A stretch of 64,000 bases of DNA from a phage. Location: NCBI GenBank assembly GCA_012690745.1, contig GCA_012690745.1_4086.1; one strand, 5' to 3'. The position numbers were made by a program, and so were the translations under genes. The notes under the pieces are model-generated. The model saw only the letters and a list, made by a program, of their open reading frames with translations. It was not told the origin of the DNA and made no database searches. Shown one piece after another: positions 214 through 49,447 of the stretch (positions within the stretch are counted from its first letter, which is position 1; each line of letters starts with the position of its first letter).

Positions 214-900
214 ATGGCTACAATGCTTGATCGATATGGCGTACCGCTCGCTGGCGGTGGTCGTATCTCTATGAAACAACCAAAAGCAAAATACAAATTT
301 CGTGTTATTTTCTTTGGTTTTGGTACTAATGATGATGGTAATATGATTACACTAGACACCAATACAGTTGGGGCAGTATCTGTATCACATGAAAACGTCA
401 CTGTTCATAGTTACAACAGTTCTGCACACTACAAAGGGAAATACACTTGGGATACAATTGATGTTGCTTTCCGTGACTCTGTAGGTAATGCTTCTGCTAA
501 AGCACTATACAACCAAATGCGTAAAGAATTTAACTACTACAGTCAAGAATCTCGCATGACAGATTCACAATTTAAATTTGAAATGTGGATTCAAGAGCTT
601 GATGGTTCTAATAGTGAAAATACAACAAACTTGTTTGAAGGAACATTGAGTACTTGGGTATGTCAAGGTTGCTTTATTGAATCCAGCAACTTTGGTGATT
701 GGGATTATTCCTCAAGTGAAGCACAAGTTATTTCAATGACTGTTCAACCAGATGGTTGTGCTAAATTGGGTCCAAACGGCGAAGCGTTCGGTGATGAAGT
801 TAGTGGCTTCGGTAATCCATCAACTGCTACCTCTATTTCTGGTGCACAAACTAATATTAGTAGTACTACTCTACCAGACAGTAACTTCTACGAAAATTAA
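214..900 (+). CDS. hypothetical protein, paralog 1 of a duplicated pair (possibly virion/tail-tube-family; unverified)
   Basis: 228-aa ORF; ATG at 214 preceded by AGGAGA (203-208). Shares the N-terminal motif KYGVPL..G...SM.QPKAKYKFRVI and the internal RDSVGNASAKAL with the next ORF. Structural assignment is a guess from motif pattern only. Confidence 0.55.
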   Translation: MATMLDRYGVPLAGGGRISMKQPKAKYKFRVIFFGFGTNDDGNMITLDTNTVGAVSVSHENVTVHSYNSSAHYKGKYTWDTIDVAFRDSVGNASAKALYNQMRKEFNYYSQESRMTDSQFKFEMWIQELDGSNSENTTNLFEGTLSTWVCQGCFIESSNFGDWDYSSSEAQVISMTVQPDGCAKLGPNGEAFGDEVSGFGNPSTATSISGAQTNISSTTLPDSNFYEN

Positions 901-994
901 TTTTATTTAAACTTAATATATAGCCTCGAATCTATTCGGGGCTTTTTTTATGCTAAATAAAGTATAATGCCTTATAAAATAAAAAGAGGTTGCT

Positions 995-1771
995 ATGGCA
1001 AATAACATGATTAATAAATATGGCGTTCCTTTACCATCGGGGCGTAATCGTTCAATGCTACAACCGAAAGCAAAATACAAGTTTCGTGTTATTGTGTATA
1101 ATTTCGGTACTGATATAGATGAACGTGATCACATCGCATTAGATGTTGATAAAATTGATAGACCTACTGTAACATTTAGTACTCATAAACTATATCAATT
1201 TACTACTAATACTTCCTATATAGGTAGTCATGATTGGGAACCAATTACTATATCTATACGTGATTCAGTTGGAAATGCATCAGCAAAAGCATTATCACGC
1301 CAACTACAAAAACAACTTGACTTTCAACGCAGAATAACTTCAAGAAATGACCAAGATTATGGTTCTTATAAATTTGGTTTAGTTATACAGATGTTGAGTG
1401 GTCGTAACTCAGATGATACACTAGAAAATCTAGGAAGAGATACACTAGTAGATGCTGCAACTGCTGCAACAAATAATGCTGGCTTAGTAAATGCAGTAGA
1501 TCAATTTATTGGTGGTTCTTCTTATAACAGTGCTGGTGTTATGGAATACTTTGTTTTAACCGGATGTGTTATTCAAAACATATCATACGATTCATTAGAC
1601 TATAGTTCAAGTTCTCCAGTTGAAATGGTAGTGACTATCAAACCAGATAATTGTATACAATTTGATAACATTGAAGAAATGTATAGTACCAGAATTAATT
1701 CACTTTTACCTGAAAATGTCAATCAAGGTTTAGATATCATTGATCGTGTTTTTGGTAGTGTAGGATTTTAA
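995..1771 (+). CDS. hypothetical protein, paralog 2 of the duplicated pair
   Basis: 258-aa ORF; RBS AAGAGG upstream of ATG 995. Clear paralogy with 214-900 (same N-terminal and RDSVGNASAKAL motifs). Confidence 0.55.
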   Translation: MANNMINKYGVPLPSGRNRSMLQPKAKYKFRVIVYNFGTDIDERDHIALDVDKIDRPTVTFSTHKLYQFTTNTSYIGSHDWEPITISIRDSVGNASAKALSRQLQKQLDFQRRITSRNDQDYGSYKFGLVIQMLSGRNSDDTLENLGRDTLVDAATAATNNAGLVNAVDQFIGGSSYNSAGVMEYFVLTGCVIQNISYDSLDYSSSSPVEMVVTIKPDNCIQFDNIEEMYSTRINSLLPENVNQGLDIIDRVFGSVGF

Positions 1772-1782
1772 GGAGATAATGA

Positions 1783-3890
<2,108 letters not shown>

Positions 3891-3917
3891 CTTAAACGAC
3901 CTTATGGAGTTATTAAA

Positions 3918-4454
3918 ATGAATAGATTACAACAAATCCTAACTGAAAAGAAACCAGTTTATGAATACCGAGTTAAGTTTGCAGTTGAACCAACACCTGA
4001 GCAACTTAGTAAAGTAACACAGCGACTAATGGATCGCTATGATGCGTTTGAAATTGGAGCACTAAAGAAAACAATTTTTATGGAAAAACCATTAGATTTC
4101 TATGAATTAGATTGTGGTGAAATTTGGATGTTTGACTTTAAATGTCATCGTGGCGTTCAATCAAATGTACTAATGTATGAAATTGGCAATTTACTAAGCA
4201 TGACAGAAGCATTGATTCGTGTTCGTAGTAAAGATGAACCTCGTCAAATTGAAATGACTGATTTGGAAGATGATATCGATTTTGATGATGTTGATGAACC
4301 AGTTATTGGAGTGGATTTTGGTAAACCAGAAGACAGTTATGACTTAGCTGGACAACAACGTGCAAACACTGCCGTTGATGATGCAATTGAAGCATCGAAA
4401 AAAGACAATAAATACTCTCAATATATGAGTGCTGGTTTTGGTAAAAAGGATTAA
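3918..4454 (+). CDS. hypothetical protein
   Basis: 178-aa ORF, ATG at 3918, tightly packed with neighbours; acidic C-terminal half. Confidence 0.5.
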   Translation: MNRLQQILTEKKPVYEYRVKFAVEPTPEQLSKVTQRLMDRYDAFEIGALKKTIFMEKPLDFYELDCGEIWMFDFKCHRGVQSNVLMYEIGNLLSMTEALIRVRSKDEPRQIEMTDLEDDIDFDDVDEPVIGVDFGKPEDSYDLAGQQRANTAVDDAIEASKKDNKYSQYMSAGFGKKD

Positions 4455-4457
4455 CAC

Positions 4458-5000
4458 ATGAGTATACTTAATGAAATGTTAGATTATGAAGACAATGAGT
4501 TAAATGAAGCTCGTCCTTATAGTCGTTCACAAAGTGCAGTTGATAGTGCAAAAGGAAAAGTAAAAGGCTTTTTTGGTAGTGGACAGATTGAACAAGGTGC
4601 ACAAGAAGTTGGTGCTGAAGCCAACCGCTTATGGGCAGAGTTTAAACGTTATGTTGGACGTAAATATGGTAAAGCTCAACCATCAGTACCTTACGCTGAT
4701 GTGGCACAGTTTTTTAAAGGTAACAATCTTGATATTAAACATTTAGGGAACAATCCTCGTCGTTCTTTTACACCAAAAGATGTAGGTACTGCTCTATTAA
4801 ATGCTGCTCGTGATATAATGAATGACTACCGTGACCAACAAGGTGGCGAAGAAAGTTCAGAATCACAACCATCACAATCGACCTCAACTGAGCAACCAGC
4901 ACAACAAGAACAACCAAAAGCACAAGGTTCCAGTATCCCTGATGCTCTACAAAAATTAAGTCCAGAGCAACGCGACCAACTGTTACGTATGCTTTCTTAA
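4458..5000 (+). CDS. hypothetical protein with low-complexity Q/E/S-rich C-terminus
   Basis: 180-aa ORF starting 4 nt after the previous stop. Confidence 0.5.
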   Translation: MSILNEMLDYEDNELNEARPYSRSQSAVDSAKGKVKGFFGSGQIEQGAQEVGAEANRLWAEFKRYVGRKYGKAQPSVPYADVAQFFKGNNLDIKHLGNNPRRSFTPKDVGTALLNAARDIMNDYRDQQGGEESSESQPSQSTSTEQPAQQEQPKAQGSSIPDALQKLSPEQRDQLLRMLS

Positions 5001-5013
5001 GGAGAATCAACAC

Positions 5014-6531
5014 ATGGATAATTTTTTCAGTACTGAAACTACCACAGTTCCTAATGGATATGTATATACGTCACATACTGGTGCAAAATATGTATTTCTT
5101 GAAGGATTCTGGTTCAATGACAATAATATGTTAATGGTAGACCCTAGAAAATACCCATCCATGTACGCAAGTGCTCGACAACAGATTGTCGAGCACAATC
5201 TAGCTTCAAATGAATATAAGATTGGTAACAAATATATTGTTGAAGGTAAAGAGTGTACATTTATTGGTGAAAACCGTTTCAATTCAAAAGATGGAATTCT
5301 ATTAACTGAAAGTGAATTCATCACTGAATTAATGGCAGATGATCATCGAGTATATAATGTTTCTAAAGAAACACTACAAAAAGAATGGAATGCATTAAAA
5401 TTTTACATTCTTCCACCATATGCTGATGATATATCAATTCCAGCAGGTATGGAAGTAAGTGGTTTTAAATTTGTGCCAAAGAATCACCGTTTTGTTGATA
5501 TGAAATCAGGACGAGCAGTTGATCCAGCAATGACCCGTAAACTATCAGATGAAGGTATGCGTATTGCTCGTCAGTTAGCTTCTAAAAATAAACTAATTCC
5601 AATCAAATCAACCTTAGTTCAAGGCAATACACGTTGTGAGTGGAATGGTAAAGAATTTTGTGATAATGATGGTAATGTAGTAATTCCAGAACAAAATGCA
5701 CATGCAATTATTAATGCATATCAGCAATTTGTTAAGAATAACCCAAGTGATTTTCCTACATTAACGGGTGAACAAGAACATAGTGAGCAACGTTTTGGTT
5801 CAGGTGAAAAGCCACATAAAGCTTCACACCCTGCTAAACAGCCAGTATTTGCAACTAAAGAATCAATTAATGAAGCAGATGAAGAAATTGAAGAATTTGA
5901 AAGCATTACTGTTCCTGACGGTTATAGAATGACTTCTTCTAAAGGAAAAACATACGCTAAGAAAAATAACTTGTGGTATGATATCGAAAGTAAAAAGCAA
6001 CTTAACACAAGTGCTTCTAAAAGTGTTGAACGAGCAGCACAGCGTGATATTTTCCGTCATAACAATTCCGGTGCTATGAAAATCGGTACAAAAGTTAAAT
6101 CCAAACAAGGCAAAGAATATTCGTATGTTGGTGGTGACAGATTCATTAGTGCTGATGGTAAGTTTATACCAAAAGCAACTGCTGCTAAATTACTTGCCAA
6201 ATATGAACAAGATAAAGAAGTTAAAAGTGATGAAACACCTGAAGTAGACTCTGGTACTGAGCAAATTCAATCAAAAGAAGAACCTAAGAAAGAACCAGAA
6301 TCTGAACAAAAACCAGACGAAGTTTCTGAACCAGAAACTAAATCTGAAACAATTGCTGGTGATGATGTACAATCATTAGCTTCTAAAATTAAAGAGTCAC
6401 CTTATGCTAAAAAAATCACAGTACTACTAACTCGTGGTGATGAGGTTTCTCTACTTGCTGCTGACATTTTACTTTCAGGTAAAAAGGATGAAACAGTGCA
6501 AATTTTAAAATCATTAAATAATAATGATTGA
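5014..6531 (+). CDS. hypothetical protein with internal repeats and a lysine/glutamate-rich C-terminal region
   Basis: 505-aa ORF; RBS AAGGAGA upstream. Repeated short module VPNGYVYTSHTGAKYVF / VPDGYRMTSSKGKTYAK / KSKQGKEYSYVGGDRFISADGKF. Confidence 0.55.
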   Translation: MDNFFSTETTTVPNGYVYTSHTGAKYVFLEGFWFNDNNMLMVDPRKYPSMYASARQQIVEHNLASNEYKIGNKYIVEGKECTFIGENRFNSKDGILLTESEFITELMADDHRVYNVSKETLQKEWNALKFYILPPYADDISIPAGMEVSGFKFVPKNHRFVDMKSGRAVDPAMTRKLSDEGMRIARQLASKNKLIPIKSTLVQGNTRCEWNGKEFCDNDGNVVIPEQNAHAIINAYQQFVKNNPSDFPTLTGEQEHSEQRFGSGEKPHKASHPAKQPVFATKESINEADEEIEEFESITVPDGYRMTSSKGKTYAKKNNLWYDIESKKQLNTSASKSVERAAQRDIFRHNNSGAMKIGTKVKSKQGKEYSYVGGDRFISADGKFIPKATAAKLLAKYEQDKEVKSDETPEVDSGTEQIQSKEEPKKEPESEQKPDEVSEPETKSETIAGDDVQSLASKIKESPYAKKITVLLTRGDEVSLLAADILLSGKKDETVQILKSLNNND

Positions 6532-6553
6532 TAACTAAAAGGATTTATTTAAA

Positions 6554-7534
6554 ATGGCTAAAAAAATTAATGAAGCACAAGTTAAAATCGATATCGCAGG
6601 TTTAGAATCTGATGATTTGGAAACTCTATCACGTATGTTAGCTCTTGCTGGTCAAGCTGAACGTCAAGACCCAGTAGTTGCCGCTCCAGTACCATCTATG
6701 GGGTCTATGACTCCATCTCTTCCACCTATTGCTCCACTAGATCTCGATTCTATTGGTGCTGAAGAAGAAATTGGTGGAATTGAAACTTCAGTTGAAGACC
6801 CACTAGCAGCGGCAGTTGATGATCTTTCCGCTGATGTTGGTGATTTTGGTGCTGACACAGATGAAGTTAGTATGGATGCTGAATTTTCAGAACCAGGTGT
6901 AGAAGGTGAAGAAGATTTTTCTCTTGACCTTAGTGGTCAACCTCAACTAGAATCAGTTGAAGAAGACGATGAGGAAGAAGAAGAAATTATTGAAGAAGAA
7001 TTCGATTTTAGTCGTATGCTATCTCTTGCTGGTATTAACGAAGAAGAAGACGAAGATTTTTCAGTAGAGGGTAATCCTGCTACCGATAAAGAAATGAAAG
7101 ATACCCAATTTCTACCAGATCTAAGTATCTCTGAAGATGAAGAACCATCTAACAGTACTGATTATGGTCCATATGATACAGAAGCTGATGCCGTTCGTGA
7201 TGGTCAACTAAAGACTAATGGTGTTGAAGGTGACCATTTTGTTGTAATTGCAAAAGGCAATCAATTTTATTGGAGACGTGTTGTAGATGAAGATCTTGAC
7301 AATCGTCCAGAACCTGAGTATTATGATAATGAAGGGAACGAAAATCGTGTTCATAAATTTGAACCAAAATTCCCAGGCACTGCATTAGGAGATAACCCAC
7401 TAAATGTTAATGAAAGTGAAGAAGATGATTCACCTGAAGGTAACATTGACTTGGAAGATGATTCTGATGAAGAAGTAGAAGATATTTTTGAAAGTCTCCA
7501 AGAAAAATACAAGAAATTTTTAGGAGACAAATAA
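6554..7534 (+). CDS. highly acidic protein (Asp/Glu-rich; candidate DNA-mimic or virion internal protein)
   Basis: 326-aa ORF with long D/E runs (EEDDEEEEEIIEEEFDF) and a duplicated motif SRMLALAGQAE / SRMLSLAGINEE. Confidence 0.55.
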   Translation: MAKKINEAQVKIDIAGLESDDLETLSRMLALAGQAERQDPVVAAPVPSMGSMTPSLPPIAPLDLDSIGAEEEIGGIETSVEDPLAAAVDDLSADVGDFGADTDEVSMDAEFSEPGVEGEEDFSLDLSGQPQLESVEEDDEEEEEIIEEEFDFSRMLSLAGINEEEDEDFSVEGNPATDKEMKDTQFLPDLSISEDEEPSNSTDYGPYDTEADAVRDGQLKTNGVEGDHFVVIAKGNQFYWRRVVDEDLDNRPEPEYYDNEGNENRVHKFEPKFPGTALGDNPLNVNESEEDDSPEGNIDLEDDSDEEVEDIFESLQEKYKKFLGDK

Positions 7535-7535
7535 T

Positions 7536-7931
7536 ATGCAATATAATTATCGTGAACTAGTTGAAGCGTTAGACGAAATTACCGGAAGAGATGAAGACGA
7601 AAGTTTTTCAGTTGAAGTTGAATCCGATGTTGTAGCAGTTGATGTTCTTAAGGATATTACCAAATGTCTTATTGATATTGTTGATAAGATTAAATCTGGT
7701 GAAGACCAAAAAGAAATTGTAGATAAACTACAAAAAGCCTGTGACATTTTGTCTGACATTCGATATAATGATGAAAGTACTGAAGTTGCTGATGAAGAAG
7801 TGTTGGAAGCCATTGCAGGTTGTTTTGGAACTGAAGGTATGGGACCAACAATTGACAAAGAAGGCGTACAACACTATAATGAGCCTGGTGCACCATCATA
7901 TGCTGCACGTCAAGGTTTTGTTGGAGACTAA
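7536..7931 (+). CDS. small acidic hypothetical protein
   Basis: 131-aa ORF, ATG 2 nt after the upstream stop; net strongly acidic. Confidence 0.5.
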   Translation: MQYNYRELVEALDEITGRDEDESFSVEVESDVVAVDVLKDITKCLIDIVDKIKSGEDQKEIVDKLQKACDILSDIRYNDESTEVADEEVLEAIAGCFGTEGMGPTIDKEGVQHYNEPGAPSYAARQGFVGD

Positions 7932-7934
7932 TAT

Positions 7935-8315
7935 ATGTTTCCAGAACCATCACATAACAGTACTGAATATCAAAATAATGTACTTTCCAAAGTTAGGGAA
8001 GTACATGAATCAGATTCAGAAATAACAGACCGTATGCTTCTGATGTCAATTTTTGAAAATTTCAGAACTGGCGGTGGTTTACGTCTTAGCAAGTTTGGGT
8101 ATGGAATTTGTAAAGAAAATAATCTTTATGAATTTACAAAAATCCCCTTGCAAAGAGAATTTAAAAGTTCTATAATGTTTACATCACTTGACAGAATATG
8201 TACTTCACCTTATTATGTTGAAGGTCAGTACATATATCTGACAGATGCAATGATAATAACTGAATTAACATTGTGTTGTGACGATTTTAAACAGTTATTT
8301 TCTATTCATATGTAA
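7935..8315 (+). CDS. hypothetical protein
   Basis: 126-aa ORF, last gene before the promoter-rich intergenic region. Confidence 0.4.
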   Translation: MFPEPSHNSTEYQNNVLSKVREVHESDSEITDRMLLMSIFENFRTGGGLRLSKFGYGICKENNLYEFTKIPLQREFKSSIMFTSLDRICTSPYYVEGQYIYLTDAMIITELTLCCDDFKQLFSIHM

Positions 8316-8339
8316 GAAAAAATGAATTAAAAATAAATG

Positions 8340-8367
8340 TTGACAAGATAGAATGATGTGATACAAT
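8340..8367 (+). promoter_or_regulatory. sigma70-like early promoter P1 (TTGACA - 16 nt - TACAAT with upstream TGTGA)
   Basis: ttgacaAGATAGAATGATGTGAtacaat; the same architecture recurs at four other sites. Confidence 0.6.
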
Positions 8368-8432
8368 AAGCATCAGACATAAAGTTTTCAAGCGACACAA
8401 GATGTGAGTTTGAAAAAAAAGAAAAAAAGTGA

Positions 8433-8460
8433 TTGACAAGTTGAAACGATGTGATATAAT
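8433..8460 (+). promoter_or_regulatory. sigma70-like early promoter P2 (TTGACA - 16 nt - TATAAT)
   Basis: ttgacaAGTTGAAACGATGTGAtataat, about 170 nt upstream of the AAA+ ATPase gene. Confidence 0.7.
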
Positions 8461-8521
8461 GTTCACATCAAGACAGCAAAGAGATTTACCTTTTAAACAC
8501 ACGGATGATTCATGAAGTAAC

Positions 8522-8562
8522 AAAGGAACTGATAAGTTAAATTATTTTAACACAGTTCCTTT
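8522..8562 (+). other. 5'-UTR hairpin (10-bp stem, 21-nt loop) between promoters and the AAA+ gene
   Basis: AAAGGAACTG (8522-8531) pairs with CAGTTCCTTT (8553-8562); followed by a T-rich stretch. Possible attenuator or processing site. Confidence 0.35.
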
Positions 8563-8629
8563 ACTTTTGCCCACGGATTGGCTATAATAGAAACTTAAAC
8601 GATTTTATCCAACAAAAGGAAATATATAC

Positions 8630-9955
8630 ATGACTACTCAAAACGATATCCTGAACGTTAAACTGACTCCAAAGAAAGCTAAAGAAGCAATGGCACTAGC
8701 TGACATGATTCAAGATAGCCTGATGATTTGGGGTAGCCCAGGTATCGGTAAGTCTGCAATCGCTCGTCAATACGCTGATGAAAATTACCCACTGCGTAAA
8801 GATAACGTAGCTAAAATCGAGTTCATGAAACAACAAATCGAAGCTGACCCTGAAAATGCTGATCAGCTACGCCGTGAACTGGCTGCATTTGAAGCAAAAC
8901 TAATCGACCAAGATACTAACTTTATCGATTTCCGTTTGTCTCAAATCGAACCAAGTGACCTTCGCGGTATTCCAGTACCAGAGAAGCTTTTCCGTAAAAC
9001 TGACGGTTCTCTTCTGAAAGAATCTGAGCTTGCCGAAGCAAAAGATTATGTAGCTGAAACTGCGGTAGTATGGGCTGCACCTAAAGTTCTGAAATTGTCC
9101 GAAGATTGGAAAGGTGTTATTCTGTTTGACGAAATTAACTCTGCAATGCCTATTGTTCAGGCAGCGTCTTATCAGCTAATCCTCGACCGTTGTGTTGGTG
9201 AGATGAAGCTACCTAAGACTGCACTGATTCTTGCAGCAGGTAACCGTGAAACTGATGGCGGTGTAACTTTCTCTCTTGCTACACCACTGCGTGACCGTAT
9301 GACTCACATTGAGATGATTCCTTATCATCAAGATTGGATTAACGATTATGCGATTGCAAAACGTTTGAACCCAGCAACTGTTGCGTTCATCAACAACACT
9401 GGTTCTAAGTACTTTAACACACTTAGTCCACAAGATCCTTCTCACAGTGGTGGTACTTCTCCACGTTCATGGGAAGCAGTAGCACGCTACGAAGATCTCA
9501 AGAAAACTAAGACAATTGATAAAGAAGTGTTCCGTGCAATGATTGCTGGTCGTGTTGGTGAAGGTGTTGCAACTGAATACATTGAGTACGTTGAGAACGT
9601 TGCTAAACTACCAGATACTATGTCTATTCTGTCTGGTGAAATCAAAGAAATCGACGCAACGCTGGATATTTCTGCGAACTACTTTATCACTCTGAACTTG
9701 GTTTATAAAATTATCGACCTGTTCAATGAGAAGCAAGAACAACGTCTACCAGTGGAAGAATGGGGTAAACTGTGTAACAACTTCATCACCTTCCTAGACC
9801 ATAACTTCTCTGCAACTCAAGCAGAACTGGCAGTACTGGCAATTCGTACCATCACGCTTCATAAGGTTGCGATTTCCATTAAAGATGTACCAGCGTTTAA
9901 AGATTTCATCGCTAAGTACTCTGAACTTGTACGTAAAGCACGCTCTCTTGGCTAA
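8630..9955 (+). CDS. AAA+ ATPase, MoxR/CobS-like (AAA_5-type)
   Basis: 441 aa. Walker A GSPGIGKS, Walker B VILFDEIN, downstream LILAAGNRE sensor-like segment. Strong RBS AAAGGAAA. Codon usage is GC-richer (CTG, CGT) than the structural genes. Confidence 0.8.
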   Translation: MTTQNDILNVKLTPKKAKEAMALADMIQDSLMIWGSPGIGKSAIARQYADENYPLRKDNVAKIEFMKQQIEADPENADQLRRELAAFEAKLIDQDTNFIDFRLSQIEPSDLRGIPVPEKLFRKTDGSLLKESELAEAKDYVAETAVVWAAPKVLKLSEDWKGVILFDEINSAMPIVQAASYQLILDRCVGEMKLPKTALILAAGNRETDGGVTFSLATPLRDRMTHIEMIPYHQDWINDYAIAKRLNPATVAFINNTGSKYFNTLSPQDPSHSGGTSPRSWEAVARYEDLKKTKTIDKEVFRAMIAGRVGEGVATEYIEYVENVAKLPDTMSILSGEIKEIDATLDISANYFITLNLVYKIIDLFNEKQEQRLPVEEWGKLCNNFITFLDHNFSATQAELAVLAIRTITLHKVAISIKDVPAFKDFIAKYSELVRKARSLG

Positions 9956-9976
9956 TTAACAAAGAGTTGTTGACAA

Positions 9977-10008
9977 GAAGGATGCCTAATGGTATCCTTC
10001 TTTTATCT
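9977..10008 (+). terminator. intrinsic terminator after the AAA+ ATPase gene
   Basis: GAAGGATGCC...GGTATCCTTC stem (one G-U) followed by TTTTATCTT. Confidence 0.55.
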
Positions 10009-10029
10009 TAACTAAACGAGGAAATATAC

Positions 10030-11454
10030 ATGTCAGATAACAAATCTACTTCCAGATTCAATGAAGTATCTCCGGCACTCCAGAAAGAATGTCAAGAACG
10101 TCTGGTTCTGGCTCGTACATCTTTGATGTTAACTGCACCATTCTTTGGTGTACTCGCTTCACGTTTACGTCCAGTTCCTAATAATACATGGTGTCGTACT
10201 CTAGCAGTGGATGGTAAACATCTATTCTACAACGTAGAATTTGTAATGGGCATTCAAGACCCATCTAAAAAGAAAGAATATGAAGAAGCTATTCGTGAAA
10301 AGCACCCTGAAGTTACAGACGAACAATTAAAAGAAATGACTGAAGGTTTGACTGATGAAAACCTTGTTGCTGTAATTTGTCATGAAATTCTACACTGTGC
10401 TTACGATCACTTCCTTCGTCGTGGTATGCGTGATCCACAACGTTATAACCGTGCAGCGGATTATGCCATTAACCAAATCATCGTTCGTGAGAAAATTGGG
10501 AAAATCCAAAGTTCATGGTTGTATGATAAAAAATATGAAGGCATGACCGCAGAAGAGATTTACATTCTTCTTGAAGAAGAAGAACAAAAAGAAGATGGTG
10601 AAGGTGAAGGTCAACCACAAAGTGGTGGCGGTGAAGGTGAAGGTAAAAATCGCGGTACTTTTGGCGATATTAAAGATGGTAAGGGTAAACCAAAAGGTAC
10701 TACCATTGACCAGCATGACGTTCCACAAGAAGGTCAAGAAGGTGGTTCAAGTGAACAGCAAAAACGTGATTATATGGATGATTTCAAAACAGCAATGATG
10801 AATGCTGCACGTGCAGGTGGTACACCAGCAGAAATCGCTCGTATGATTAACAACTTTAAAGAACCAAAGATTGACTGGCGTTCAAAACTTCAACGTACAC
10901 TTCGTAGTTGGTTGAAGTCTGATGCAACATATCAAAATCCGAATCGTCGTTCTTGGGGTGCAGGTTTTGGTTCTAATGGTTCATTCTATGGTAATCCAAT
11001 TTACCCAGGGATGAAACCAGATGATGACATTGATATTGCGATTGCACTAGATGCTTCTGGATCTATTTCTGAAGATATGCTTCGTGATTTCATTAGTGAA
11101 GTTCTAGGTATCACTAAACAATTCAAACAGTTTAAGATTCGTATCATGACTTTTGATACTGAAGTTTATACTGTAAAGGATTACAAAACTGGCGAAGAAC
11201 GTAAGATTCTGGAATATCCAGTAAAAGGTGGTGGTGGTACTGACTTTGAAGCAGTATGGGTTCATATGAAGAACGACAACTACAAGCCTAAACAGCTTGT
11301 AATGTTTACAGATGGTGAACCGTGGCAGTCGTGGGGTGATCCAAACTACTGTAAAACACTGTTCGTGATTCACAGTAACCCAAATAAAGTTGCACCATTT
11401 GGTGAGACTGTACACTACGAATATGAAGCTGATAAAAAGCGTCAACGTAGTTAA
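10030..11454 (+). CDS. VWA-domain protein with N-terminal HExxH putative metallopeptidase domain (DUF2201-like, CobT/ViaA-like partner of the AAA+ ATPase)
   Basis: 474 aa. HEILH zinc-binding motif in the N-terminal domain; E/G-rich disordered linker; C-terminal MIDAS-like DASGS motif (IAIALDASGSIS) typical of von Willebrand A domains. Confidence 0.7.
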   Translation: MSDNKSTSRFNEVSPALQKECQERLVLARTSLMLTAPFFGVLASRLRPVPNNTWCRTLAVDGKHLFYNVEFVMGIQDPSKKKEYEEAIREKHPEVTDEQLKEMTEGLTDENLVAVICHEILHCAYDHFLRRGMRDPQRYNRAADYAINQIIVREKIGKIQSSWLYDKKYEGMTAEEIYILLEEEEQKEDGEGEGQPQSGGGEGEGKNRGTFGDIKDGKGKPKGTTIDQHDVPQEGQEGGSSEQQKRDYMDDFKTAMMNAARAGGTPAEIARMINNFKEPKIDWRSKLQRTLRSWLKSDATYQNPNRRSWGAGFGSNGSFYGNPIYPGMKPDDDIDIAIALDASGSISEDMLRDFISEVLGITKQFKQFKIRIMTFDTEVYTVKDYKTGEERKILEYPVKGGGGTDFEAVWVHMKNDNYKPKQLVMFTDGEPWQSWGDPNYCKTLFVIHSNPNKVAPFGETVHYEYEADKKRQRS

Positions 11455-11466
11455 GTACTAAATAAT

Positions 11467-11497
11467 GAGAACGGAATTTTCCGTTCTCTTCTTTTAT
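11467..11497 (+). terminator. intrinsic terminator
   Basis: GAGAACGG-aatttt-CCGTTCTC followed by TTCTTTTAT. Confidence 0.65.
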
Positions 11498-11501
11498 AAG
11501 T

Positions 11502-11529
11502 GGGACAACTTATAAAAATATGATATAAT
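11502..11529 (+). promoter_or_regulatory. sigma70-like early promoter (GGGACA - 16 nt - TATAAT)
   Basis: gggacaACTTATAAAAATATGAtataat; same spacing and ATGATATAAT -10 context as P2. Confidence 0.5.
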
Positions 11530-11563
11530 AGTTAATGTACCAATATACATGGAGAGTATTAAA

Positions 11564-11809
11564 ATGGAACAAGAAAATAATCAAATTCAACTAACCCTTC
11601 TAGACCTAATCAATGCTGCAAAAATTATGGAAGCTGCTGTTGCACGAAACACCTTTAAAGTTGAAGAACTTGTTGAGGTTGCTCCAGTTGTATCTAAATT
11701 TGTTTCTTTTGCAAATGTAGCTCTTGAAGATATTAAAGCACAAGAAGATGCAGCTAAAGAAGAAGCTGAATCACAAGATAGTGAAACTCAAGAAGATAAA
11801 GGAGAATAA
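11564..11809 (+). CDS. small acidic hypothetical protein
   Basis: ORF track starts at 11549, but ATG 11564 is preceded by GGAGAG. Product is E/D-rich (EDAAKEEAESQDSETQEDKGE). Confidence 0.45.
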   Translation: MEQENNQIQLTLLDLINAAKIMEAAVARNTFKVEELVEVAPVVSKFVSFANVALEDIKAQEDAAKEEAESQDSETQEDKGE

Positions 11810-11811
11810 TT

Positions 11812-12468
11812 ATGGCAGCTATTCGTCATGTTGGTGTAATGCGTAATACAGGTTCTCGTGTTTTTGTTGTTTGGCGTTCACTACCAGATGATCCTGAACA
11901 CTGCCTTATTGTTTATCGTGATTCACTACCAGAAGCATATGTTCACGCAGTAACTGATATTGTTATGGGTCATGGTCAATCTAATATTGATTTGTGGGAA
12001 GTAATGCATAAAATTGGTTATCTCGATGGACGCAAAATGCTAGATGTTCTACACAATATGCAGCATCTCCGTCGCGTTCGTACTTGTGACATTGATATGC
12101 ACACTGGTGGTAATAATAAAATTTCTCTTGATGTTCTAAACAAAGCATTAGATGAAAATCAAGCAAAAGTACAAGAAGATGGTAAAGTAAAAGACTTTAA
12201 CCCATTCAATCCACAAGAAGCGGACACTAAAGTAGAAGAAGCTACTATTGTAGAACAACTTCTCACTGATGCACAAAAATATGAAAAACTGGCTAAAGAA
12301 CATTATGAACGTGCATATAATTTAGAGCCAAGTTTGCGTCCACAAACACAAGTTGTTGAACAACCGAAAGATAGTAAAACAATTTATCTAGAAATTCCAG
12401 AAGGTATTTCACAGACTAAAGCTATTGAGAAAGTAAAACAACTATTTGCAGAACGTAAAGCAAAATAA
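11812..12468 (+). CDS. hypothetical protein
   Basis: 218-aa ORF; RBS GGAGAA; starts 3 nt after the previous stop. Confidence 0.5.
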   Translation: MAAIRHVGVMRNTGSRVFVVWRSLPDDPEHCLIVYRDSLPEAYVHAVTDIVMGHGQSNIDLWEVMHKIGYLDGRKMLDVLHNMQHLRRVRTCDIDMHTGGNNKISLDVLNKALDENQAKVQEDGKVKDFNPFNPQEADTKVEEATIVEQLLTDAQKYEKLAKEHYERAYNLEPSLRPQTQVVEQPKDSKTIYLEIPEGISQTKAIEKVKQLFAERKAK

Positions 12469-12471
12469 AAT

Positions 12472-13065
12472 ATGAAAAAGAATGAATTAGATGAAGCAAT
12501 AAAAGGTTTATCTAATGTATGTTTTAGTGGCGGGGCAGCAGGTGCTGACCGCCTTTTTTCTATCTATGCAAAAAATAATGGATTTGAAGTTATTAATTTT
12601 TCATTCAAAGGTCATGAGCATAGTGTAGATGAAAGTACTATATTAGAAATACCATCCAATATTCTATCTGATATTTCTATATTAAATCAACTAAACATTG
12701 CATGTTACTCGTTACAGCGAAAAGTACCGAAGCCTGGTTCTTATGTTTACAACTTACTTGCAAGGAATAGTTATCAGATACTTAATACAGAAAGAATATA
12801 TTGTATTGCAAATATCACATCACCAACTAAGGTAAGTGGTGGTACTGCATGGGCAGTACAGATGTATATGGATTCAGTTGAAAATCCTGAAATTTATTGT
12901 TATGATATGAATTCACGTTCAGTATTTTATTTTGATACAGTACTGAAAGAGTTCACACAAACATTCGTCGTTCCAGCACCACATGGTAACTGGACTGGTA
13001 TTGGTTCACGCAATGCCACCGAAAAACATATGGAACATTTTATTACATTTTTCAAGGAAGAATAA
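12472..13065 (+). CDS. Rossmann-like protein with glycine-rich FSGGAAGAD loop (SLOG/DprA/LOG-like; putative nucleotide-processing enzyme)
   Basis: 197-aa ORF; stop overlaps the thymidylate synthase start (ATGA at 13062-13065), implying co-expression. Fold assignment is inferred from the G-rich loop only. Confidence 0.4.
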   Translation: MKKNELDEAIKGLSNVCFSGGAAGADRLFSIYAKNNGFEVINFSFKGHEHSVDESTILEIPSNILSDISILNQLNIACYSLQRKVPKPGSYVYNLLARNSYQILNTERIYCIANITSPTKVSGGTAWAVQMYMDSVENPEIYCYDMNSRSVFYFDTVLKEFTQTFVVPAPHGNWTGIGSRNATEKHMEHFITFFKEE

Positions 13066-13994
13066 TGAAACAACTACAAGAACTATATCAAAAAATTCTA
13101 GATGAAGGCGTAGAAAGCGTTGACCGTACTGGTGTTGGGACAATCAAACTTATCGGTCAACAAATGCGTTTCGACCTTAACGATGGTTTCCCAGCAGTGA
13201 CGACAAAACGTCTAGCTTGGAAAGCAATGACTTCAGAATTACTATGGTTTATTGAAGGTTCCCATGATGAGCGTCGCCTTTGTGAAATTTTGCATGGAAC
13301 TCGTGATACCGAAAAGAAAACAATTTGGACAGATAATTACCTAAATCAAGGCGTTGCTCTTGGTTATACTGGTGGTGAATTGGGTCCAGTGTATGGTAAG
13401 CAATGGCGTGAATGGGAAGATTATAAATTTAGTTCCAGTACTGAAGAAATTCAAGAATTAAAAGATAAAGGATACAAAGTTATCGATTATACTGGTTCAC
13501 ATGGTGTTGTTATGAAACGTACAACTGACCAATTACAAGAACTAATCAAAGGTATAAAGTCCGATCCATATGGTCGTCGCCACATTCTAAGTGCATGGAA
13601 CGTTGGTGAGCTTGATGATATGACGTTGCCACCTTGTCATAGCTTTGTGCAATTTTGTGTAGTACAAGGGAAACTAAGCTGCATTCTACATCAACGCTCC
13701 GCTGATCTATTTTTAGGAGTTCCATTTAATATCAGTAGTTACTCACTACTAACTCATATGATTGCACAAATTACTGGTTTAGATGTTGGTGAATTTATTT
13801 GGAATGGTGGTGATTGTCACATTTATAAAAACCACGTTGAACAAGTAAAAGAACAACTACAGCGAAAACCTCGTGAATTACCTGAATTGTGGCTTGATCC
13901 TACAATTACTAATATTGAAGATTTCACAATGGATTCTTTCAAATTAGTGAATTACAACCCAATGCCAACAATTAAAGCACCGATGGCTGTATAA
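13065..13994 (+). CDS. thyA: thymidylate synthase (ThyA-type, T4 td-like), intronless
   Basis: 309 aa. Canonical motifs: FPAVTTKRLAWK, RRHILSAWN, active-site LPPCHSFVQF, QRSADLFLGVPFNISSYSLL, GGDCHIYKNH. Confidence 0.95.
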   Translation: MKQLQELYQKILDEGVESVDRTGVGTIKLIGQQMRFDLNDGFPAVTTKRLAWKAMTSELLWFIEGSHDERRLCEILHGTRDTEKKTIWTDNYLNQGVALGYTGGELGPVYGKQWREWEDYKFSSSTEEIQELKDKGYKVIDYTGSHGVVMKRTTDQLQELIKGIKSDPYGRRHILSAWNVGELDDMTLPPCHSFVQFCVVQGKLSCILHQRSADLFLGVPFNISSYSLLTHMIAQITGLDVGEFIWNGGDCHIYKNHVEQVKEQLQRKPRELPELWLDPTITNIEDFTMDSFKLVNYNPMPTIKAPMAV

Positions 13995-49411: not shown

Positions 49412-49447
49412 AAAGATATCCTCGTTTTATTTATAGTACTAAAATAT

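Follow-up and report, generated by a model that had tools for sequence, protein, structure and literature searches.

A MoxR-type AAA+ ATPase and a partner with HExxH and VWA domains form a widespread, strongly codon-adapted gene pair in an Asteriusvirus jumbo coliphage

We have analyzed a two-gene cassette on the + strand of a 64-kb stretch of phage DNA (GenBank assembly GCA_012690745.1, contig GCA_012690745.1_4086.1), which is referred to throughout as the window. Gene A (8630-9955; 441 amino acids) encodes a divergent AAA+ ATPase of the MoxR/AAA_5 type, and gene B (10030-11454; 474 amino acids) encodes a protein that joins an HExxH-bearing, zincin-like domain to a von Willebrand factor A (VWA) domain with a metal ion-dependent adhesion site (MIDAS) through a linker. 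The two products probably constitute a two-component, ATP-driven machine for protein remodelling or processing, of the generic MoxR-VWA design. Its client may be one or more abundant proteins of the phage itself, for which the pair would act as a maturation or assembly chaperone-protease; we favor this identification tentatively, and the full statement of mechanism plus client is offered as a leading possibility that falls somewhat short of an even chance. An original prediction, made from the letters of the window, had read the locus as such a pair, and both that reading and its interpretation are correct, in that the cassette is an accurate instance of a known, widespread phage module. It is not a new kind of system: the pair is common in large phages, and the labels given to it in phages RaK2 and phAPEC6 and the description by Iyer et al. 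(2021) show that it has already been described.

The window derives from an Asteriusvirus jumbo coliphage with a genome of approximately 350 kb and is 99.5% identical to 121Q/PBECO4. Positions 8400-11600 are 99.2-99.6% identical to Escherichia phages JP4, PBECO4, 121Q, G17, phAPEC6 and some 15 more, share 87% identity with a second group of E. coli phages, and are also related to the Klebsiella phage RaK2 group; every gene considered here is present already in GenBank, under differing labels. Open reading frames (ORFs) for the two were found exactly where the original prediction had placed its cassette (8630-11454, + strand), and the motifs it had quoted (GSPGIGKS, ILFDEIN, HExxH and DASGS) are all encoded there, with functional residues that are invariant across diverged homologues.

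Gene A was assigned by ORF calling and profile searches to the N4 gp24 family (phrog_1297, "ATPase"; E = 3e-107). The Walker A motif GSPGIGKS occupies residues 35-42 (8732-8755, + strand) and the Walker B motif ILFDEIN, with D167 and E168, residues 164-170 (9119-9139, + strand). Among 32 aligned homologues with identities down to 32%, G35, G38, K41, S42 and E168 do not vary, and D167 is nearly constant (at least 90%). N205, R223 and R279 (the last in "SPRSW") are also invariant, and by their positions in the fold they are inferred to be sensor-1, the arginine finger and sensor-2, respectively. Protein A barely touches the Pfam AAA models, scoring below the gathering threshold for AAA_3 (16.7 versus 27) and AAA_5 (15.6 versus 22), because two insertions (residues ~53-94 and ~118-145) break up the domain. 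Shorter homologues of about 360 amino acids carry AAA_3, AAA_5 and bpMoxR domains (PF07726, PF07728, PF20030), and a homologue from the Chromatiaceae passes the AAA_5 threshold at 42.6 bits. In the AlphaFold model of A (pLDDT 86.9), strands 114-123 and 140-149 lie between beta2 (98-102) and Walker B (163-167) and form a helix-2 beta-hairpin insert, a short pre-sensor-1 hairpin (188-193) precedes beta4 (199-204), and residues ~250-441 make up a long C-terminal helical domain. The helix-2 insert (PMC7159879) and the pre-sensor-1 hairpin mark the MoxR/dynein-midasin/chelatase clade. Protein A is a divergent AAA+ ATPase of this helix-2-insert (MoxR/AAA_5/dynein-midasin) clade; the domains of its homologues and the model bear out the MoxR-type assignment that had been proposed. 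The top match in BFVD is the "Gp24-like protein" of RaK2. A replication clamp loader (RFC, gamma complex or T4 gp44), the identity that the original prediction had itself set against the MoxR type, was rejected, as the match to phrog_168 is marginal (E = 9e-4) and the best profile and the fold lie elsewhere. Neither A nor B matches an NCBIfam model, and single-sequence searches of PDB sequences with either protein gave chance-level matches only.

Protein B belongs to the N4 gp25 family (phrog_1314). It is laid out as a zincin-like domain (residues ~10-190), a disordered acidic and Gly-rich linker (~190-240), a helical region and a VWA domain (~334-465), and the Pfam matches are DUF2201_N (E = 2e-35) and the VWA-like DUF2201 (E = 7e-21). 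The HExxH motif, HEILH, lies at residues 118-122 (10381-10395, + strand) and the MIDAS motif DASGS at residues 341-345 (11050-11064, + strand). In an alignment of 30 homologues with identities down to 43%, H118, E119 and H122 are invariant, as are MIDAS residues D341, S343, S345, T404 and D428. The model places strands at 47-67 ahead of a helix (109-128) that carries HExxH, and the C-terminal domain has the Rossmann-like fold of a VWA domain. Both halves of the partner had thus been called correctly, and the absence of a VWA/MIDAS fold, which had been named as a result that would speak against the call, was not what we found. The profile of the N-terminal domain finds minigluzincin MJ1213 (E = 0.001) and also an M48 peptidase, the latter weakly, and a Brucella homologue matches Peptidase_M48 at 21.9 bits against a threshold of 20.3; the domain is best described as an M48/minigluzincin-like zincin and a predicted peptidase. 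Candidates for the third zinc ligand are H127 (nearly invariant), D144 (invariant) and the invariant D227/H229. D227 and H229 ("xDxH") are present in 30/30 homologues and stand inside the otherwise disordered linker (10597-10749); they could be the third zinc ligand, a latency switch for the active site or a site of self-cleavage. As judged from sequence, A retains every catalytic residue of an active AAA+ ATPase, and the HExxH core and the MIDAS of B are intact.

Homology indicates that the pair is the gp24/gp25 pair of phage N4. Protein A is called "gp24-like" in the 2012 RaK2 record, the phAPEC6 annotation of the pair reads "MoxR ATPase / N4 gp25-like", and gp24-/gp25-like names also appear in K64-1 and Muenster. 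A tblastn search with A matches the gp24 gene of the N4-genus phage Jura, and the Jura gp25, encoded downstream of gp24, carries DUF2201_N (E = 1e-86) and DUF2201 (E = 2e-46). The two genes are among the 14 core genes of N4-like phages, the remainder of which serve transcription, replication or structure (PMC4193335). In N4 (Schitoviridae) homologous proteins occur in the same order, the ATPase and then the DUF2201_N plus DUF2201 protein, although the jumbo-phage proteins are about 90 amino acids longer, with two insertions in A and one insertion plus the long acidic linker in B. The N4 pair is transcribed by N4's own middle RNA polymerase, whereas the pair in the window has host sigma70-type signals upstream. 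A pair of a MoxR ATPase and a vWA-metallopeptidase was described computationally in "group 2.2" jumbo phages by Iyer, Anantharaman, Krishnan, Burroughs and Aravind (2021; PMC7824862), who called it a chaperone-cochaperone and proposed a role in virion assembly and peptidolytic processing by analogy with Acidianus two-tailed virus (ATV). Their pair has the same architecture as that in the window, and was matched to it on that basis.

Several characterized systems share the design. ATV encodes p618 (MoxR) and p892 (VWA), a viral pair tied to particle morphogenesis, whose likeness to our pair is taken from the literature only; p892 lacks a peptidase domain (PMC7824862), unlike B. NorQ/NorD and CbbQ/CbbO have the same two-gene arrangement of a MoxR-type ATPase and a VWA-MIDAS adaptor, but NorD and CbbO lack the HExxH domain, A differs from NorQ and CbbQ in its long C-terminal helical domain and extra insertions, and the clients of these systems are respiratory and carbon-fixation enzymes that are absent from this phage; by sequence the pair is not a member of either. 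RavA/ViaA and CobS/CobT (including cyanophage cobS) share the general plan of a MoxR/AAA_5-group AAA+ ATPase with a VWA partner. Membership in the former was rejected, with no RavA LARA or ViaA/CoxE domain matches in A or B, and so was membership in the latter, with no CobS_N or CobT/CobT_C match in Pfam at E <= 0.1 and none in NCBIfam; the lack of a CobS_N/CobT signature also disposes of the cobalt-chelatase-like phage gene set against which the original prediction had cautioned. The match of the B N-terminal domain to the selecase MJ1213 spans a beta-strand and the HExxH helix, only ~50 residues, and selecase is a free-standing enzyme of 110 amino acids, whereas the domain of B is tethered. 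Neither protein matches a PADLOC defence system, the vWA-MoxR ternary conflict systems included, and no third conserved component (VMAP, FtsH or a beta-propeller) was seen in the neighborhoods examined. The statement that the function in a phage is not established holds, as we found no experimental study of the pair in the literature. Likewise, the literature searched yielded neither transcriptome studies nor functional ones for N4 gp24/gp25, for rV5, for Schitoviridae or for Asteriusvirus, and the main text of the PA5oct paper mentions neither the ATPase nor its partner.

The module is widespread. Relatives of B are present in 685 phage records and relatives of A in 816, and when these are broken down by host genus the two tallies nearly coincide. 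Carriers include Rak2-like jumbo phages, rV5-like myoviruses, N4-like podoviruses and PA5oct/MIJ3, joined on the basis of fold by Bacillus phage G, PBS1 and phiRSL1, and the B profile retrieves 25,265 cluster representatives at E <= 1e-3 (6,986 at E <= 1e-30). In a survey of bacterial or metagenome-assembled loci, limited to one genome per species, a B relative is encoded at 34 loci, with an A relative upstream at 28; among the six that lack one, five lie on short contigs and the sixth does not. The same A-then-B order is found in metagenomic phages, in the N4 genus, in CBB and in PA5oct. In PA5oct (locus 6092-11278) and MIJ3 (locus 991-6176), three small genes and a homing endonuclease stand between A and B, an arrangement that looks like a mobile-element insertion into the cassette, and in an rV5-like phage A and B are divergent and 3.7 kb apart. 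A 329-amino acid protein upstream of B in the rV5-like phage was considered as a second ATPase and rejected, as it has no similarity and no AAA domain. A and B are co-inherited; their linkage is tight, not absolute, and mostly takes the form of A directly upstream of B.

Inheritance of the two genes appears to be coordinated at a finer scale. The insertions in A (a helical hairpin at 8786-8911 and an extended helix-2 beta-hairpin at 8981-9064) and the insertion in the peptidase domain of B (10249-10347) are lineage-specific and co-occur in the same phages or contigs, which suggests co-evolution of the partners and hints at a co-evolved interface. Gene neighborhoods differ between lineages. ThyA is near the pair in this window, CBB and EJP2; the pair is found near ThyX, a 5'-3' exonuclease and GTP cyclohydrolase I in uncultured marine phages, near dCTP deaminase in the N4 genus, and near RNase H and QueE in PA5oct, and in Brucella it belongs to a prophage-like replication module with a ligase and a beta-clamp. 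In several phage groups that are unrelated to one another, a pyrimidine-metabolism gene (ThyA, ThyX or dCTP deaminase) is found a few genes away from the pair. In sulfur-oxidizing bacteria, both free-living and symbiotic, the pair is chromosomal (for example at locus 4932-8823 of a Chromatiaceae chromosome) and is followed by an M48-TPR (BepA-like) peptidase and cytochrome c/SoxA genes; these non-phage relatives point to a cellular, possibly envelope or respiratory, role.

Codon usage and translation signals set the cassette apart within the window. The codon adaptation index (CAI) was computed for 44 window genes against a reference of 24 ribosomal-protein and rpoA genes of E. coli K-12, and A (0.605) and B (0.551) rank first and second, the window median being ~0.385; the codon usage is host-like, as had been predicted. 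GC content at third codon positions stays low (0.34 in A, 0.25 in B), so this usage looks like selection for expression, not recent transfer from the host. Horizontal transfer from host to phage as the source of the codon usage is unlikely, since in addition to the low third-position GC all close homologues are in phages. The strong ribosome-binding site that had been claimed is borne out, as both genes have a Shine-Dalgarno sequence on the + strand, AAGGA before A (8616-8620, 9 nt before the ATG) and GAGGA before B (10018-10022, 7 nt before the ATG). The initiation regions of A (8616-8632, AGGAAATATATACATG) and B (10018-10032, AGGAAATATACATG) are almost identical. These features describe two genes built for very high expression.

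Promoter-like sequences are concentrated upstream of the cassette. Ten sigma70-like sites with at least 11/12 consensus matches were counted across the window, and six of these fall on the + strand at 7296-8460. The largest 1.2-kb cluster in 300 first-order Markov simulations of the window held three sites, and simulations with local composition gave a mean of 0.06 sites and a maximum of two in 2,000 runs, versus the six observed. Four of the sites are distal (7296-7324, 7741-7769, 7852-7880 and 8188-8216) and sit inside the coding sequence of three upstream genes (6554-7534 and 7536-7931, both for virion proteins, and 7935-8315); sites near -860 and -418 from the ATPase start are seen again in Turkey3, EJP2 and a Klebsiella phage. 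Nearer to gene A, a consensus scan located three + strand candidates: P1 (8340-8367; TTGACA-16-TACAAT with an extended -10, TGTG), P2 (8433-8460; TTGACA-16-TATAAT, 12/12, extended -10) and P3 (8560-8588; TTTACT-17-TATAAT, 10/12), the last being the closest to the gene. The claim of at least two tandem sigma70-like promoters is therefore right as sequence. The P1 hexamers are kept, with a diverged spacer, in Turkey3 and the Klebsiella phage. P2 is clearly kept in Asteriusvirus relatives including EJP2, with diverged spacers, and its copy in the Klebsiella phage is degenerate (TTGAAT...CATAAT). P3 is kept in eight of the nine phages compared. The more distant CBB and fHe-Yen9-04 have no consensus sigma70 sites upstream of the pair.

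Two hairpins complicate this arrangement, and both are additional to what the original prediction had listed. The first (8524-8561, + strand) is terminator-like, is followed by TTTACTTTTG, and stands between P2 and the start codon of A, so that P1/P2 are followed by a conserved leader of ~60 nt and then by the hairpin, whose T-run doubles as the -35 hexamer of P3. The fold of the 109-nt leader has a z-score of -3.05, the hairpin coincides with an ARNold terminator annotation in the phage G17 record, and it is kept in 8/9 phages of Asteriusvirus and Alcyoneusvirus, the inner stem being different in the latter (the Klebsiella group). The hairpin may act as an attenuator, or a short RNA started at P1/P2 may have its 3' end there. 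P1 and P2 could give short RNAs of ~190 and ~100 nt, candidate small RNAs or attenuator transcripts, instead of driving the ATPase gene. Because the conserved hairpin intervenes, the output of P1/P2 may consist largely of short RNAs or be attenuated, in which case P3 would remain as the cassette's proximal promoter. An Rfam scan of 7000-12000 gave two matches, both at chance level, and assigned the leader to no credible family. A leader peptide for classical attenuation over this hairpin was rejected, since the 11-codon ORF present here is not kept in the Klebsiella phages. The second hairpin (9975-10002, + strand; 12 bp and then a T-run, dG -21.8 kcal/mol, z-score -5.89) lies between A and B, and a hairpin with a T-run, of differing sequence, occupies the same position in five phages. 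It is likely to be a partial terminator that leaves more A transcript than B transcript, an excess that fits the ratio of a hexamer to a single adaptor in characterized MoxR-VWA pairs. The cassette is closed by a bidirectional, intrinsic-terminator-like hairpin with a T-run (11467-11488, both strands; dG -14.6 kcal/mol, z-score -5.05), the terminator of its own that had been predicted, and the next promoter-like site follows at 11502-11529.

The label "early-expressed" in the original prediction was inferred from promoter consensus alone; the N4 homologues give middle-class transcripts (PMC4193335), and a conserved hairpin stands between gene A and its two best promoters. No T4-type late promoter TATAAATA is found on the + strand of the window, hence none before the cassette. 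Exact copies of this T4-late-type sequence occur solely on the - strand, at 49435, 55474 and 63034, those at 49435 and 63034 being just upstream of ORF starts; none of the + strand structural genes at 214-7931 is preceded by one.

We propose that the pair would work as follows. Synthesis from its own sigma70-type promoters, early or in mid infection, would run ahead of the late structural burst. By analogy with NorQ/NorD, CbbQ/CbbO, midasin and RavA/ViaA, and in line with the general account of MoxR-vWA systems (PMC7159879), A would form a hexameric ring on which a single copy of B docks; the MIDAS metal of B would grip an acidic residue or extended peptide of the client, ATP hydrolysis by A would pull on the client, and the tethered M48/minigluzincin-like domain of B would cut an exposed segment of it. 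That the client is a phage protein agrees with the proposal of Iyer et al. The ATPase gp265c of phAPEC6 is in the list of virion-associated proteins of that phage (6 peptides, 19% coverage, similar to accepted structural proteins), and the PA5oct homologue, EST35_0335, is flagged as found by virion electrospray ionization tandem mass spectrometry. A particle-linked client is also favored by gene order: in Rak2-like phages the cassette comes immediately after a co-directional block of about 10 neck, sheath, head-completion and other virion genes. In roseophages, extra virion-protein genes adjoin the gp24/gp25 homologues (PMC4193335), and Iyer et al. (PMC7824862) and Kaur et al. both point to an archaeal-virus precedent, the development of the ATV tails.

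A number of observations weigh against a client of this kind. The virion lists that hold the ATPase also hold thymidylate synthase (phAPEC6) and RNase H (PA5oct), and the presence of such soluble enzymes makes carry-over of a very abundant ATPase plausible. CBB virions show neither A nor B, so that across the three virion proteomes (phAPEC6, PA5oct, CBB) the ATPase is found in two and B in none. The N4 homologues are middle-class rather than late (PMC4193335), genes for replication or nucleotide metabolism, not structural ones, neighbor the pair in PA5oct, in N4, in uncultured marine phages and in a Brucella prophage-like element, and the chromosomal copies in sulfur oxidizers indicate that the module is not virion-specific. 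The peptidase activity of B is itself a prediction. More generally, the phAPEC6 and PA5oct lists may contain abundant non-structural proteins that were carried over, or enzymes that jumbo phages package.

Part of this evidence can be read in favor of a host-directed protease for takeover or counter-defence, made early and in bulk, in which the MIDAS would grab host proteins (defence, envelope, respiratory or regulatory), extract them and cleave them. We consider this reading unlikely, though it draws on conserved consensus sigma70 promoters with an extended -10, a class predicted to drive early genes in CBB, on the highest codon adaptation in the window, on the expression of the N4 homologues ahead of late genes (PMC4193335) and on the failure of B to appear in any of the virion proteomes. 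Conservation is moreover confined to virulent large-genome phages, and the E. coli relative RavA-ViaA is reported to act on membrane respiratory complexes. However, there is no defence-related PADLOC match and no known anti-defence family, the ATPase was found in two virion preparations, and cellular homologues exist outside prophages. The pair is also a core gene set with catalytic residues that are invariant in phages of Roseobacter, Pseudomonas, Vibrio and E. coli, and core status across such different hosts argues against a host-specific target. A bolder and more doubtful variant is that the pair is a trans-acting ATP-dependent protease of uncharacterized design, an AAA+ ring with one adaptor that both selects (MIDAS) and cuts (minigluzincin), which would be produced in large amounts as soon as infection begins, with the ATPase partly in the virion, and would dismantle a conserved host complex.

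Comparably doubtful is a role as an enzyme-activation or metal-cofactor chaperone for a replication or nucleotide enzyme of the phage, in which HExxH would hold or pass a metal rather than cleave. The analogy here is with NorQ/NorD (iron insertion), CbbQ/CbbO (Rubisco reactivation) and the chelatases, and a comparison of folds puts NorQ/NorD, CbbQ and BchD closest among solved ATPase-VWA pairs. The recurrence of pyrimidine and replication genes next to the pair in independent lineages and the middle-class transcription of the N4 homologues (PMC4193335) are in keeping with such a role, but gene adjacency in phage genomes is weak evidence, and no one candidate client enzyme is common to all the lineages that carry the pair. 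The N-terminal domain of B is homologous to true peptidases, selecase and M48, and very high expression would be unusual for a chaperone of this type. The remainder of the probability falls to something other than an assembly, host-directed or enzyme-activation role.

Records label B as an HNH endonuclease, Zn-dependent hydrolase, DNA repair ATPase, putative membrane protein, anti-sigma factor, Sll7028 protein or gp25-like. That database labels are right, with A a clamp-loader or DNA-transaction ATPase (the phrog_168 match) and B an HNH endonuclease (as in phrog_1314 and many GenBank records), a "DNA repair ATPase" or an anti-sigma factor, can be dismissed, since the labels contradict each other between records, no HNH-family or other nuclease domain is found in B by Pfam at E <= 0.1, and DUF2201_N, the linker and the VWA domain explain its full length. 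The labels "HNH endonuclease", "DNA repair ATPase" and "putative membrane protein" are wrong for B, and "anti-sigma factor" is probably wrong. The unsupported HNH label of phrog_1314 is still spreading among records.

Two neighboring loci deserve mention. The ORF at 7935-8315 (126 amino acids), just upstream of the cassette, has a CAI of 0.287 (rank 43/44 in the window), has no Pfam match and holds one promoter-like site; phAPEC6 has no annotation for it, but the records of Turkey3, EJP2, fHe-Yen9-04 and CBB give an ORF of comparable length at the syntenic position. Downstream, in 12472-13994, a YpsA/SLOG-like protein (weak PF10686 match; "ypsA" in Turkey3) ends at the start of thymidylate synthase (13065).

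The pair is among the few non-structural, non-replicative gene sets common to N4-like, rV5-like, Rak2-like and PA5oct-like virulent phages, and B also has thousands of bacterial relatives. To what was known of it, the present analysis adds extreme tuning for expression, an apparent excess of ATPase over adaptor, the finding that two of three virion proteomes contain the ATPase but not B, insertions gained jointly in both partners, and recurrent siting beside pyrimidine and replication genes. If the pair were indeed a protease that dismantles a host complex, it would represent a previously unrecognized mechanism of host takeover, and a widespread one, given that it is core to N4-like phages and shared with the rV5-like, Rak2-like and PA5oct-like groups. 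Whichever reading applies, knowledge of the client would account for a pair of core genes in the Schitoviridae and would give the first mechanism for a MoxR-VWA system with its own peptidase.

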